DNA of 8,369 nucleotides from a virus (Duplodnaviria; Heunggongvirae; Uroviricota; Caudoviricetes), in the IMG/VR virus record IMGVR_UViG_3300039329_000118; one strand, given 5' to 3'. The notes under the pieces were generated by a model. The model ran no database searches, had not been told where the DNA came from, and saw only the letters and a program-made list of their open reading frames with translations. Of the stretch, positions 1,056-8,107 are shown piece after piece (position 1 is the first letter of the stretch; each line of letters begins with the position of its first letter). A program made the translations under genes and the position numbers.

Positions 1056-1086
1056 NNNNNNNNNNNNNNNNNNNNNNNNNNNNNNN
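1056..1086. other. run of 31 N: assembly gap or masked bases
   Basis: Directly visible in the sequence. True length is unknown; it interrupts the region between the candidate OL/PL and the first leftward gene. Confidence 0.95.
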
Positions 1087-1247: not shown

Positions 1248-1667
1248 CTATGATGCGTTTTGTGCTTTCTTTTTACGGATTTCTTCGTAGATCATATTGT
1301 AATACTGTTTTTTCTCTTCAAGAGTTTTTAATAATTTATCCGCTTCACTTTCTGGCAGTTCGTCTAAGAGATCTAAAAAAATACGTTGTCGTGGCGTTAG
1401 AACCCTTGTTTCATAACTGGAGGCTGTGTTCGTTGATGATGAAACGATACCATCCATCCATCCCCGGGGTAACCCAAAGGACTCTTCGATAATCTCCACC
1501 ATATCATCAGCGATCCGTTTTTTTCCCTTTTTCCCCTCTGGGTACAACATTCTTGATACATAAGAAGGCTCGCGCCCGATCTTTCTGGCCACGTTAACCG
1601 CTTTACCATCGCATTTCTCATCACGAATTTTGATGAGTTGCTGTCGTCTAAATTCATATTTGTCCAT
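1248..1667 (-). CDS. prophage repressor, CI-like HTH protein without a recognisable S24 autoprotease domain
   Basis: 139-aa ORF divergent from a cro-like gene. N-terminal HTH-like segment (KAVNVARKIGREPSYVSRML). Too short for a LexA-like Ser/Lys peptidase domain and no such motif seen. Flanked by palindromic operators. No SD before the ATG at 1667, so it may be translated from a leaderless or short-leader transcript, as lambda cI is from PRM. Confidence 0.7.
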   Translation of the reverse strand: MDKYEFRRQQLIKIRDEKCDGKAVNVARKIGREPSYVSRMLYPEGKKGKKRIADDMVEIIEESFGLPRGWMDGIVSSSTNTASSYETRVLTPRQRIFLDLLDELPESEADKLLKTLEEKKQYYNMIYEEIRKKKAQNAS

Positions 1668-4209: not shown

Positions 4210-5019
4210 TCACTTAATTATTGGATAACTCACACAAGTATGACCGTTGCTTATCGCATACATTTGGTTTCCCTTAAGATTTACAAATGGAAATGTCGTA
4301 TACTCATAATTTATAGAGGTCATATTAAATGTAAGGAATTTATCCTCAAGTTCTAATTTTGTAGAGTGGGCAGGGTATGTTCCTTCATTTTTCATTGTGA
4401 TAATAAAACCGATAGGAAAAAAATGTAAAGCACAAATAAATGCCACATGTCCTTCGTTCATAAATGCTACACTTTGAGCGGATATGTGCATTCTGTGTGG
4501 GTAAAACCAGTAGTAAATATCATGAGTTTCCTCAAAACTTGAATTTTTACCCAAAACATAATCCTTTAAAGGTGTATAGAAGGGGCTATCTACGGGTTCT
4601 TTTTTACAATCTTCAACTGAAGTTGCTGATAGCACGTGCCCAATCATAGCCTTAGTGAAAGATATGCTATCAAAAGGTATTCTAATGAATGGATATACAT
4701 TCATACCATTCATATATCGACTTAACTGTTCTTTAAAGGACTTTGTTACATTTTCAATTGCAACATCGAGCCCACCTAATACCTTATTGTTACAGTGGCT
4801 GCAAATGGTTCTGAAATAAGAGCCATTTTTAGCATTTAATGGTTTAACTGGTTCCTGAATACCAAAAAATTCGCTAACTGTTTTCTGCAAAACAGGGCCT
4901 AAGGTTATGGCGCACTTTGGAGGAACATGATCTTTTGTGAGCAAGCCATATTTCCCACAAATATTGCAATAACCTTCAGTAATGCCATTGTGCTTCCATC
5001 GTTCACTAATTTTCGTCAT
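4210..5019 (-). CDS. HNH (His-Me finger) nuclease-motif protein with an uncharacterised C-terminal domain
   Basis: 269-aa ORF in markedly AT-rich DNA, opposite in orientation to the flanking phage genes. N-terminal motif C-N-I-C-G-(x7)-D-H-V-P-P-K ... N ... C-S-H-C-N-N-K fits the HNH pattern (CxxC, [D/E]H, N, CxxC). SD-like GAGGGA about 6 nt upstream of the ATG on the minus strand. About 180 C-terminal residues unrecognised. Confidence 0.75.
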   Translation of the reverse strand: MTKISERWKHNGITEGYCNICGKYGLLTKDHVPPKCAITLGPVLQKTVSEFFGIQEPVKPLNAKNGSYFRTICSHCNNKVLGGLDVAIENVTKSFKEQLSRYMNGMNVYPFIRIPFDSISFTKAMIGHVLSATSVEDCKKEPVDSPFYTPLKDYVLGKNSSFEETHDIYYWFYPHRMHISAQSVAFMNEGHVAFICALHFFPIGFIITMKNEGTYPAHSTKLELEDKFLTFNMTSINYEYTTFPFVNLKGNQMYAISNGHTCVSYPIIK

Positions 5020-5163: not shown

Positions 5164-5643
5164 TAGAAGGTTAGCTTGCGTCGGACTTGGCGTATTTAAA
5201 GAAGTGCTGGTGGTGACTGGTTGTTGTGTTCCATTTCTACAGAACAAAATCACAGAAACTATACCCAATAGTTGTATCTCATCAATGATGAGACAGCCTC
5301 ATATTTATCAGAACTGGTGTACGTCCAATACAGGAGGTTGTCGTGCTGGTTCTCAAATGTGCGCTGGCTATTGCTGCTGTAATGGCAATTTATTGCCTTG
5401 CTGTTGTTCTTATGGATCGCCTTTCTGATTGATTTTATATTGGCGAGGTGACGTGAGTTAAGTAGAATTGCTGCGGGTGCTTGAGGCTATCTGTCTCAGG
5501 CATGAACACCAAAGGCAGATAGAGAAAAGCCCCAGTTAACATTACGCGTCCTGCAAGACGCTTAACATTAATCTGAGGCTCAATCTATGAACGGCAAATC
5601 TAGGTTAGCCTCTTACGTGCCGAAAGGCAAGGAGAAGCAGGCT

Positions 5644-5799
5644 ATGAAGCAGCAAAAGGCGATGTTAATCGCCCTGATCGTCATCTGTTTAACCGTCATT
5701 GTGACGGCACTGGTAACGAGGAAAGACCTCTGCGAGGTACGAATCCGAACCGGCCAGACGGAGGTCGCTGTCTTCACAGCTTACGAACCTGAGGAGTAA
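5644..5799 (+). CDS. hokD: Hok/Gef family type I toxin (HokD/RelF-like small membrane peptide)
   Basis: Translation MKQQKAMLIALIVICLTVIVTALVTRKDLCEVRIRTGQTEVAVFTAYEPEE (51 aa) has the Hok/Gef layout: hydrophobic transmembrane segment then conserved C-terminal tail. It matches my recollection of E. coli HokD/RelF closely; the symbol is from memory. SD AAGGAG at 5629..5634. The ORF track's 70-aa frame (from ATG 5587) is an in-frame upstream extension. Confidence 0.85.
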   Translation: MKQQKAMLIALIVICLTVIVTALVTRKDLCEVRIRTGQTEVAVFTAYEPEE

Positions 5800-5868
5800 G
5801 AGACCTGGCGGGGGAGAAATCCCTCGCCACCTCTGATGAGTCAGGCATCCTCAATGCACCCGCGCTTA

Positions 5869-5888
5869 ACCCGCTTCGGCGGGTTTTT
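5869..5888 (+). terminator. rho-independent terminator of the hok transcript
   Basis: Stem ACCCGC (5869..5874), UUCG tetraloop (5875..5878), stem GCGGGT (5879..5884), followed by T-run to 5888. About 70 nt after the hok stop. Confidence 0.75.
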
Positions 5889-5903
5889 CTAGCATCTATC
5901 TGG

Positions 5904-5963
5904 TTGACAAAGTCTATGTTAAATGGAAATATGGTTGACACCAAAACAACAAGGATATTACGG
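5904..5963 (+). promoter_or_regulatory. candidate promoter region for the two-gene operon
   Basis: Two TTGACA hexamers (5904..5909 and 5935..5940) in the 77-bp gap between the hok terminator and the ATG at 5966. Possible -10 elements are AAATAT (5927..5932) for the first, or TATTAC (5956..5961) for the second, which would give a near-leaderless mRNA. Weak; start site not resolvable by eye. Confidence 0.3.
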
Positions 5964-5965
5964 TC

Positions 5966-6580
5966 ATGCAGAATTTATCTCAACAGTTGTTAGAAGCATA
6001 TGACAAGGAGTGCCGCAAAGAGCTTTCGATCGCGTTAGCACAGGCTTATCTTCATTCGCATATGAAGGCAAAAGAGTTTGGTTCTTTTTGGGCTCAAGCA
6101 CAGTCATATTTGCGCTGGTTTTATGCCGATGCATTGCTTGAGAATGCGGCTAAGCGTGTGGGGCTGGATTTTGAAGTCGGTAGCAATGCTGCTAAAAATT
6201 GTAAACACATTGCGATTCACTCGAACAACTGGAAAATGACGGCACATCATTTATCGGGTAATGCGCCACTTCCTAAGCAGGCATTGTATAGAGCTGTTTA
6301 CGCTAATCAAAATTATGAATTGAATTTTGGGGATGAAAATGCCGACTCCCTGGATGGGAGAGCGTCTGGTGGACATGTTTATATGTTACATGATGGCAGT
6401 AATCAGCACTTGTCCAAACTGAATTTAACTGTTCCTTCTTCGGATAATTACGGGATTCTTTATACTGAGTCTTTACCAATTATGACGATGGTAGAAGTTG
6501 AAGCAGAAAATGTGGATTCTGAGATTGAAGATAAAATCAAGATTCTTACCGAACAAATAATTAAATCACAGCAATCATGA
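5966..6580 (+). CDS. hypothetical protein, first gene of the two-gene operon (candidate effector/toxin partner of the HTH-peptidase)
   Basis: 204-aa ORF, AT-rich. Stop overlaps the next gene's start (ATGA at 6577..6580), implying translational coupling. No motif I can recognise; acidic C-terminal tail. Confidence 0.7.
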   Translation: MQNLSQQLLEAYDKECRKELSIALAQAYLHSHMKAKEFGSFWAQAQSYLRWFYADALLENAAKRVGLDFEVGSNAAKNCKHIAIHSNNWKMTAHHLSGNAPLPKQALYRAVYANQNYELNFGDENADSLDGRASGGHVYMLHDGSNQHLSKLNLTVPSSDNYGILYTESLPIMTMVEVEAENVDSEIEDKIKILTEQIIKSQQS

Positions 6581-7722
6581 GCATGAATATCGCACAAACA
6601 CCATTTACTGATAAATCGTTTAATCCTCGTCGCCTTGAGGAGGCAAGAGAGGCAAAAGGGTTGACGATGGCTGAACTTGCCAGAGTGCTCAATATTTCAA
6701 GACAAGCTATTTCGTCATTTGAGAAGGGGTTGAAGTCTCCCTCTGCTGATACACTTTCTGCAATAGCCAAGGTGTTAGGATTTCCAGAACGATTTTTCTT
6801 AGCCTCCAGTGCTTCTCCATCTCTGGAGGGGGCGATTCATTTTAGAAGTCGTTCAACTGCGACCAAAAAGGCTCGAGTTACAGGGAAAACACGTGGGCGT
6901 TGGGCGGCATTAATATTGGATGAATGTCTAAAATATGCTCAATTACCAGATGTGGTTCTGCCTGAATTCGATATTATTGATTTTGAGGTTCTGTCTCTAT
7001 CTGATATTGAGGATATGTCCACCCAATTAAGGCGTTTTTGGGGGTTAGGTGATGGTCCAATACTCAATTTAACTAGACTTGTTGAAAATAAAGGAATCGT
7101 GGTTTCTCATTTACCTTCTGGTGAGAAAGTTGATGCCTTTTCGTTCTGGCATAATGGGCGGCCTTTAATTATGTTAGATAGCTCGAAGACGGCTGTTCGC
7201 ATGCGATTTAGTCTTGCTCATGAACTTGGCCATTTAATTATGCATAGGGCAGTGGAGGATGACTACCTGAATGATAAAGAATTATTCGACCTAGTGGAGT
7301 TGCAGGCCGATTATTTTGCCTCCAGCTTTTTAATGCCAGCCACGACTTTCGGGCGTGAATTTTATAGTCCAAATTTATCAGCGTTAGAACGATTAAAACT
7401 ACGTTGGATTACATCTATCGGTAGTATTGCCATGAGGAGTCATAGCCTTAAGTTAATTAGCGATAATCAGAAAAGCTATATATTTAAGCAATTAGCGCCA
7501 TTCCATCGTAGGGAGCCGTTAGATGATGCAATCCCAAAAGAAGAGCCTGAGTTACTTAATAAGTTACTTTTACTTCTTGATAAGCATTCAATCATAAAGG
7601 TAACTGAGTTAACTGATATCTTTGCTCTTCCTTTAAATGAGTTATCTGCAATTACACGATTTAAAGAATCAGATATGATTCATTCTGACAATGTTATTTC
7701 ATTTACCATAAAACAAAAATAA
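6577..7722 (+). CDS. XRE-family HTH fused to an ImmA/IrrE-type (COG2856 / M78-like) zinc metallopeptidase domain
   Basis: 381-aa ORF. N-terminal Cro/C1-type HTH (LTMAELARVLNISRQAISSFEKG). Central HEXXH zinc-binding motif (SLAHELGHLIMH) with the downstream acidic/aromatic segment (ELQADYFASSFLMP) typical of ImmA/IrrE peptidases. Coupled to the upstream gene and followed by a terminator. Confidence 0.85.
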   Translation: MSMNIAQTPFTDKSFNPRRLEEAREAKGLTMAELARVLNISRQAISSFEKGLKSPSADTLSAIAKVLGFPERFFLASSASPSLEGAIHFRSRSTATKKARVTGKTRGRWAALILDECLKYAQLPDVVLPEFDIIDFEVLSLSDIEDMSTQLRRFWGLGDGPILNLTRLVENKGIVVSHLPSGEKVDAFSFWHNGRPLIMLDSSKTAVRMRFSLAHELGHLIMHRAVEDDYLNDKELFDLVELQADYFASSFLMPATTFGREFYSPNLSALERLKLRWITSIGSIAMRSHSLKLISDNQKSYIFKQLAPFHRREPLDDAIPKEEPELLNKLLLLLDKHSIIKVTELTDIFALPLNELSAITRFKESDMIHSDNVISFTIKQK

Positions 7723-7733
7723 TTCTCATTCAT

Positions 7734-7758
7734 ACCCGCCTCGGCGGGTTTTTGTTTT
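7734..7758 (+). terminator. rho-independent terminator of the two-gene operon
   Basis: Stem ACCCGC (7734..7739), loop CUCG (7740..7743), stem GCGGGT (7744..7749), then TTTTTGTTTT. Twelve nt after the stop at 7722. Nearly identical in sequence to the hok terminator. Confidence 0.7.
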
Positions 7759-7828
7759 ACGTATTCTGGTTTACAATCCACAGGCCAGCCTGAACAACTG
7801 GCACCTGCTGCGCCAGCAGAGACAACCG

Positions 7829-8107
7829 ATGGCGCACGATACCAAATTATACAATTCTGATGATTCTGCCGTCTTTGCCAGCAGGCGCGGACGGTGTTTT
7901 CACGCATTCAAATCTGACTGGTACCAGCATCCCCCATGCACTGAAGAACAGGCCGAATGGCTCATTCAGTGTTACCGCAGGCGCGGATGCGAGGTTAAAA
8001 AAGCCCTTAGCCTCGACTACCGTCACTGGATAATCTCCGTCAGGCTCCCTTACTCCGAACGGCCAGCGCGTCCGTCCCGCACATTCCAGCAACGGATCTG
8101 GAGGTAA
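7829..8107 (+). CDS. hypothetical ORF in higher-GC DNA (weak call)
   Basis: 92-aa ORF-track frame ending with TAA at 8105..8107. Plus-strand frame preferred over the overlapping minus-strand 147-aa frame, whose P/G/R/S/T-rich composition looks like an antisense shadow. No SD or motif verified. Confidence 0.25.
   Translation: MAHDTKLYNSDDSAVFASRRGRCFHAFKSDWYQHPPCTEEQAEWLIQCYRRRGCEVKKALSLDYRHWIISVRLPYSERPARPSRTFQQRIWR

Follow-up and report, generated by a model that had tools for sequence, protein, structure and literature searches.

Rosmerta systems (RosmerTA, or RmrTA) have been described as phage-defensive pairs formed by a Zn-peptidase antitoxin, RmrA, and a toxin with no known function, RmrT, in which an rmrA deletion is not transformable (bioRxiv 10.1101/2022.05.11.491447). 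Diversity is seen among the RmrTs, and protection against Bas54 and Bas59 has been shown for the RmrTA of Gordonia phage Kita (PMC10440598). Here we compare with these systems a two-gene locus found in IMG/VR virus record IMGVR_UViG_3300039329_000118 (Caudoviricetes), a stretch of 8,369 nucleotides (nt) that was analysed whole and is referred to below as the window. Its two genes, encoding proteins of 204 and 381 amino acids (aa), likely constitute a Rosmerta toxin-antitoxin cassette (RmrT and RmrA, respectively) inserted in a lambdoid prophage of Escherichia coli, for which an anti-phage role is proposed with moderate confidence, by analogy with the systems known to protect. Rosmerta is widespread and enriched in phages, and the cassette, which is carried by the inducible phage Tritos, provides a tractable E. 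coli example of its RmrT class. A system of this kind is already detected by PADLOC-type profiles; what is new for the RmrT class is a fold prediction, a motif conserved in the family, a candidate operator and the limits of the insert.

Several further pairs have been studied. In Vibrio mimicus, vmi480 is the toxin and vmi470 the antidote, as derived from their behaviour (PMC4671572). RipAB (Spr1630/Spr1629) of Streptococcus pneumoniae is silenced in a ClpX-dependent manner and its toxin, RipA, acts via the hydrophobic pocket of DnaN, the documented effect being replication stress and induction of competence, with no phage phenotype reported (PMC12795458). The prophage module E101_02645/02644 of E. 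coli E101 makes clpP essential (10.1101/2020.05.25.114553), and in three Pectobacteriaceae ClpX or ClpP is required for silencing of the toxin (10.64898/2025.12.09.693261). In several species the antitoxin gene is essential or undeletable when the toxin is present (10.1101/2022.05.11.491447; 10.64898/2025.12.09.693261; PMC4671572). Concerning the peptidase module itself, single-stranded DNA or DNA damage activates the M78 peptidases CapP, IrrE and ImmA for cleavage of helix-turn-helix (HTH) repressors (PMC13228613).

The 381-aa protein is an RmrA

The 381-aa protein shows a Pfam HTH_3 domain at aa 20-73 (2.4e-16) and a Peptidase_M78 domain at aa 170-287 (9.7e-19), in agreement with the original prediction, made from the letters of the window, which had read a Cro/C1-type HTH followed by an HEXXH peptidase motif. 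The latter corresponds to HELGH at aa 215-219 and is accompanied, from aa 241, by the usual third-ligand context ELQADYFASSFLMP (E..A..FA..LMP); as judged from these motifs, the protein is a full-length Xre-HTH/M78 peptidase whose metal site is intact. An N-terminal Xre HTH fused to an M78 Zn-peptidase with HEXXH, within about 360-400 aa, is also the architecture of the RmrA of Rosmerta. Among the PADLOC models, for which we report profile matches without PADLOC's own coverage cut-offs, the RmrA profile PDLC03947 covers aa 11-380 (5.5e-102) and 14 RmrA profiles match.

Alignment with studied antitoxins gives the same picture. With the verified RmrA of E. coli OLC-716 the window RmrA aligns end to end at 31% identity across 354 aa (E 4e-41), HELGH and the E..A..FA..LMP stretch being in register, and it is 28% identical over its full length to RipB of S. 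pneumoniae. The idea of a Rosmerta-type effector under an HTH-M78 regulator, put forward in the original prediction, is hence borne out on the regulator side by both full-length profile matches and end-to-end alignments. The protein also matches PADLOC capP (1.5e-21), capH (1.7e-10) and CapP in the PDB (7t5t). Typing of the toxin through the spr1629 profile score of its partner was tried and rejected, since the cut-off is 335 bits and every RmrA tested lies at 183-215, which makes the score uninformative.

The partner gene fits this assignment. It is a small gene (within the range of about 200-240 aa) located immediately upstream of rmrA, co-directional and tightly linked to it, and its product matches a catalogued RmrT profile. 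The two open reading frames (ORFs) share the ATGA at 6577-6580, as had been noticed before; this exact overlap is retained in close relatives, and distant ones show gaps of 4-11 nt or longer overlaps.

The 204-aa protein and the RmrT family

By itself, the 204-aa protein matches four PADLOC RmrT profiles weakly, the best of them PDLC03933 (7.5e-10) being partial, over aa 47-161. No match was obtained in Pfam or NCBIfam for this protein or its 67 relatives, and sequence searches of the PDB with RmrT found nothing. Salmonella, Citrobacter and Yersinia have close homologues, which are few (64-92% identical). When 1.84 billion representatives were searched exhaustively with a profile, 78 relatives of about 200-220 aa were obtained, and all 67 of the full-length aligned ones match PDLC03933, the best with 1.8e-53, which makes the 204-aa protein a divergent member of a catalogued RmrT class. 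The suggestion that it might be a new effector type does not hold in this light: going by these profile matches, the class is already catalogued, though uncharacterised. Relatives were absent from two scans of species-representative genomes and from the PLSDB plasmids, and were present in only 1 of 50,697 phage records.

A second E. coli member of the same family occurs in strain 2013C-3181 (NZ_CP027312.1; locus L050, 3998-5754), where a 56% identical RmrT, WP_032298929.1, stands with WP_231216515.1. That pair is located downstream of Q, a DNA methyltransferase gene and three tRNAs, that is, in the stx slot of Shiga-toxin phages, and a TerB-family gene adjoins it.

Comparison with described systems

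The RosmerTA of E. coli OLC-716, whose sequence was taken from the supplement of the Millman preprint, resembles the window pair in having two co-directional genes with the toxin first, an RmrA with Xre HTH and M78 domains of about 370-380 aa, and an E. coli host. It differs in its RmrT, which has 239 aa and corresponds to PADLOC PDLC03935/03932 instead of PDLC03933 and related profiles, and in its phage protection, which has been shown, that of the window cassette being a proposal. RipAB is likewise a Rosmerta-family pair, and both its toxin and the window RmrT are soluble. However, RipA (243 aa; PDLC03931), recovered from a metagenome collection by searching with a primer published in the RipAB paper, has no detectable homology to the window RmrT (hhalign probability 0.07%), and it was rejected as a member of that family. 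RipAB is also chromosomal and competence-linked, in contrast to the prophage-borne window cassette, and its DnaN target and ClpX dependence are experimental, while for the cassette they would follow by analogy.

Vmi480/Vmi470, from the V. mimicus element MGIVmi1, and E101_02645/02644 resemble the window pair in presenting a toxin of about 200 aa without known domain upstream of a 362-aa antidote with HTH and Zn-peptidase, as well as in having their own promoter and residing in mobile elements; the likeness is drawn from their descriptions, and their accessions are other than WP_001180546.1 and WP_000062344.1. The RmrTA of Kita is, like the window pair, a Rosmerta pair that a phage carries and whose antitoxin is of ImmA type; its anti-phage activity is narrow and demonstrated. 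Its toxin localises to the membrane and depolarises it, whereas the window RmrT is acidic and has no hydrophobic segment (maximum Kyte-Doolittle 19-residue mean of 0.7). The two toxins are therefore unlike, and a membrane-toxin model as in Kita was rejected. Finally, CapH/CapP, DdrO/IrrE and ImmR/ImmA contain the same kinds of HTH and M78 domains as RmrA, but in them repressor and peptidase are separate and control other genes, while RmrA fuses both and is paired with a toxin.

Cassette boundaries and distribution

The pair lies between two copies of a 20-nt direct repeat, each of them a hairpin (Table 1). The left one folds at -13.9 kcal/mol (z -3.1) and ends at position 5888, the point where the query match of other phages stops; the right one, a terminator-like hairpin at 7734-7749 followed by a T run, folds at -12.1 kcal/mol (z -2.9). 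Of the 5426 complete E. coli genomes, 2859 have an empty site, represented by the synthetic junction of 5700-5888 with 7754-7950, as one contiguous match of about 97% identity, whereas 41 have the filled site. These counts define the pair as a discrete moron of 1865 bp.

Conservation of the gene neighbourhood, proposed earlier as a check of the pairing, is complete: an RmrA gene lies immediately downstream in 29/29 fetched loci for which downstream sequence was available, over a span of RmrT identity of 25-100%. The contexts of these pairs vary widely. They include a position beside an S24-type CI repressor in Yersinia prophages, a nin-type region, a phage morphogenesis region (between head genes and the terminase gene), the vicinity of Tn7-like tniQ/tniB genes, an integrase island in gut metagenomes, and the stx-type slot of another E. 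coli prophage.

Table 1. Location of the putative Rosmerta cassette, its elements and neighbouring features in the window.
Feature	Position	Strand	Remarks
Putative Rosmerta cassette, moron at the hokD terminator	5889..7753	+	1865 bp; from the empty-site junction and filled-site counts
rmrT (predicted toxin)	5966..6580	+	204 aa, soluble, acidic; conserved N116-Y-E-L-N-F121, then variable acidic loop
rmrA (antitoxin/regulator, by homology)	6577..7722	+	381 aa; HTH nt 6634-6795, M78 nt 7084-7437, HELGH nt 7219-7233
TGGTTGACA repeat 1, candidate RmrA operator	5901..5909	+	contains perfect -35 hexamer TTGACA (5904-5909); exact copy pair
Candidate extended -10	5924..5932	+	TG (5924-5925), one base, AAATAT (5927-5932); read from sequence; 17 nt after the -35
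TGGTTGACA repeat 2, candidate RmrA operator	5932..5940	+	covers the predicted transcription start
hokD terminator hairpin, left copy of 20-nt direct repeat	5869..5888	+	D1, ACCCGCTTCGGCGGGTTTTT; 95% identical to 7734-7753
Intrinsic terminator, right copy of 20-nt direct repeat	7734..7753	+	from scan, direct repeat and folding
hok/sok type I toxin-antitoxin locus (hokD-like)	5475-5799	+	directly upstream of the cassette; Rfam sok, 110 bits
hokD-like ORF	5587..5799		Pfam HOK_GEF, 3e-23
Cysteine-rich protein ORF	4210-5019	-	269 aa; GC 0.34-0.37
Prophage repressor	1248..1667	-	139 aa; phrog_5736
Run of 31 N	1056-1086		masked or assembly gap

Candidate promoter and operator

Two exact TGGTTGACA repeats, 31 bp apart, precede rmrT. 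The repeats, their spacing and a TGnAAAAT(T) element are kept upstream of homologous pairs with 39-100% RmrT identity, in DNA that is otherwise unrelated, and this conservation suggests that the repeats may be operators for RmrA. Of the promoter and terminator that had been attributed to the pair, the terminator was recovered as the hairpin and T run described above. The promoter fell below the threshold of a generic consensus scan and was not reported by it, though the TTGACA, TG and AAATAT elements are present and conserved. With a promoter-like element, the two conserved repeats, rmrT, rmrA and a terminator, the cassette is self-contained.

Predicted structure and conserved residues of RmrT

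Structure prediction of RmrT from 9 close homologues gave a predicted local distance difference test score (pLDDT) of 40, and a confident model was obtained, with AlphaFold2, only from the alignment of 67 sequences (pLDDT 86.4, predicted template modelling score 0.78). In this model the N-terminal part is a long hairpin of helices and the C-terminal part a helix, and there is a mixed sheet into which one helix is inserted. Its core may be a restriction-endonuclease-like fold (alpha-beta-beta-beta-alpha-beta) that lacks the catalytic residues; Foldseek searches with the model against the PDB and BFVD gave no significant match. Conservation of the canonical D...(D/E)xK residues is absent, the corresponding strands (2 and 3) carrying H81 and T92-x-H/S94, with no conserved acidic residue or lysine, and a canonical PD-(D/E)xK nuclease was rejected on account of the absent catalytic residues. 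The conserved polar set comprises Y28, D/E55, N74, N78, H81, T92, R/K104, R109, N116, H142 and E181.

Among the best-conserved features of the family is the motif N-x-[D/S]-L-F, placed directly after the helix formed by residues 107-117 and at the start of a variable, acidic loop of low pLDDT. It appears as QISLF in a large subfamily of 199 aa, as NYDLF in close relatives and as NYELNF in the window RmrT. Bacterial clamp-binding motifs have the forms QL[SD]LF and QLxLxL, and in sequence the RmrT family motif resembles them.

Similar stretches were observed in two studied toxins. RipA, as encoded on a metagenome contig with S. pneumoniae ripAB (L038, 6545-8442), begins with MLNQDLFDS and so displays the N-x-D-L-F pattern of the unrelated window RmrT family, and the verified OLC-716 RmrT contains QLKLDL at aa 143. 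The occurrence of the pattern in both RipA and the window family may be convergent.

Proposed mechanism

Published homologous systems, through their toxin/antidote behaviour, the essentiality of rmrA, the need for ClpX/ClpP, the two phage-protective cases and the activation of M78 peptidases, are the reason for the following proposal on how the cassette works. A toxic RmrT neutralised by its RmrA has been described for OLC-716, Kita, RipAB and Vmi480/Vmi470. It would most likely serve the lysogen as an abortive-infection defence against other phages. In the uninfected lysogen, RmrA would probably repress the operon by binding to the two TGGTTGACA repeats, over the -35 box and the transcription start, and would neutralise RmrT, which we infer to be toxic from the homologous pairs; silencing would probably also require host ClpX/ClpP. 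A cue arising from infection would then release RmrT from RmrA, and this cue could be single-stranded DNA or DNA damage, perceived through the M78 module in the manner of CapP, IrrE and ImmA, or else a lost supply of RmrA. Free RmrT would be a soluble cytoplasmic protein which, according to its model, probably acts by binding and not by cutting. Its most plausible target would be DNA or the machinery of replication, where N-x-[D/S]-L-F might contact the beta sliding clamp, and the outcome would be arrest of the infected cell.

The identity of the target is the more tentative part of this scheme, and that it is the clamp or replication is possible and doubtful. A broader version is rather unlikely as it stands: that the uncharacterised RmrT family is a catalytically dead protein of restriction-endonuclease fold which poisons replication via the beta sliding clamp through N-x-[D/S]-L-F, and that Rosmerta toxins of unrelated folds (RipA with NQDLF, OLC-716 with QLKLDL) converge on the clamp and share ClpX/ClpP-assisted silencing by RmrA, in a SocAB-like logic. 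If the clamp idea were true, it would link Rosmerta toxins mechanistically. The handles gained for approaching these points are a unit of 1865 bp whose empty site occurs naturally, a candidate operator, a peptidase site that is intact, a confidently modelled soluble toxin, a short list of conserved residues and a candidate clamp motif.

Alternative explanations

Several points weigh against the proposal of a toxic, anti-phage cassette. We found in the literature no experiment on the window cassette or on any member of its RmrT family. The family shows no detectable similarity to the RmrT of OLC-716 (hhalign probability 0.15%) or to RipA (0.07%), and being unlike both of the studied RmrTs compared, it is credited with toxicity and defence solely by way of its RmrA partner. 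The role known for RipAB is in competence, none having been shown in defence, therefore a Rosmerta module need not be anti-phage. Concerning the clamp motif, 11% of shuffles and about 8% of background ORFs contain NYELNF-type matches, which is not significant for a single protein; taking RmrT, RipA and OLC-716 together, single-protein matches arise in 1-15% of shuffles and in about 8% of background ORFs. Because these matches are not significant, the clamp idea is a lead resting on family-wide conservation, not a result. The exposed loop carrying the motif could equally be a site of recognition or cleavage by RmrA.

Two rival explanations keep the two genes as a functional pair and change what the pair is for. 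The RmrA scaffold common to both systems shown to defend, and the occurrence of the cassette as a moron in prophages, in the genomes of phages and in further mobile elements, where prophage-borne defence genes usually reside, make it unlikely that we deal with a genuine RmrTA pair having a role other than defence, such as prophage addiction or a RipAB-like switch of stress or physiology. Such a role would nevertheless accord with RipAB, a Rosmerta-family pair for which an effect on replication stress and competence has been reported and a phage phenotype has not, with the adjoining hok/sok, another module of addiction type, and with published defence data existing for only two Rosmerta systems, both having other toxin families. 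The 204-aa protein might also be no toxin at all, and act as a sensor, a co-regulator or a decoy substrate of the peptidase in a module that controls other prophage genes. RmrT has no recognisable catalytic motif and the match of the 204-aa protein to the curated RmrT profiles is weak; we still regard this as very unlikely, given that all Rosmerta pairs studied share this order, size and tight coupling of the genes and have the toxin encoded upstream, and that the antitoxin gene is essential or undeletable in several species.

The original prediction offered as its alternative that the peptidase is an anti-repressor protease for the non-cleavable prophage repressor (Table 1); the HTH-M78 protein would then be an ImmA-like anti-repressor or inducer, and the 204-aa protein an accessory. 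This is conceivable to the extent that ImmA, IrrE and CapP cleave HTH repressors upon DNA damage (PMC13228613), that the 139-aa repressor has no S24 autocleavage domain, and that repressor and cassette are found together in the window, in phage Tritos and in APEC E19035. Their distributions nonetheless separate: of the complete E. coli genomes, 822 have the repressor and 41 the cassette, in Yersinia prophages close relatives of the pair stand beside S24-type repressors, more distant ones occur in non-phage elements, and in 29/29 testable loci RmrA comes with rmrT. The organisation also differs from that of ImmA/ImmR, as HTH and peptidase are parts of a single protein, rmrT and not a repressor gene adjoins, and the cassette lies 4.2 kb from the repressor gene; RmrA has an HTH of its own, and its own promoter carries conserved repeats. 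The anti-repressor model was rejected on the genome counts, the repressor types and the rmrT linkage, and appears extremely unlikely.

Prophage setting and neighbouring genes

The surroundings are those of a Rac/Qin-like lambdoid prophage, with the 139-aa repressor, ydaS/ydaT-like genes, a replication protein, a DUF977 gene and hok/sok. GC content is 0.36-0.44 over 6000-7800, versus 0.49-0.59 in the region of the replication genes, and the same DNA is present in Escherichia phage Tritos and, as lambdoid prophages, on the chromosomes of E. coli, flanked by hokD and the ydfU/rusA/Q genes. The earlier description of AT-rich DNA inside a prophage was thus correct. The 139-aa repressor is annotated as CI in phage Tritos, shows neither an S24 peptidase domain nor a Pfam match, and is found at no less than 95% identity in 821 of the 5426 complete genomes. 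To the left of its gene, a run of N (Table 1) falls between ORFs, and ORF calls across it are unreliable.

The hok/sok terminator hairpin is the sequence that is duplicated at both ends of the Rosmerta insert, hence two toxin-antitoxin modules adjoin. Between the DUF977 gene and hokD lies the AT-rich gene of a 269-aa cysteine-rich protein (CNICGK...DHVPPK, CSHCNNK), for which no match was found in Pfam, NCBIfam, PADLOC or the PDB, the sole match, phrog_21495, being of unknown function. Phage pro147 has a 95% identical version, which carries the annotation 'putative metal-binding domain-containing protein'. In this slot APEC E19035 has QueH, and phage Tritos a hypothetical protein of 444 aa. 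It is thus a second variable moron slot, and the 269-aa protein a possible defence candidate.

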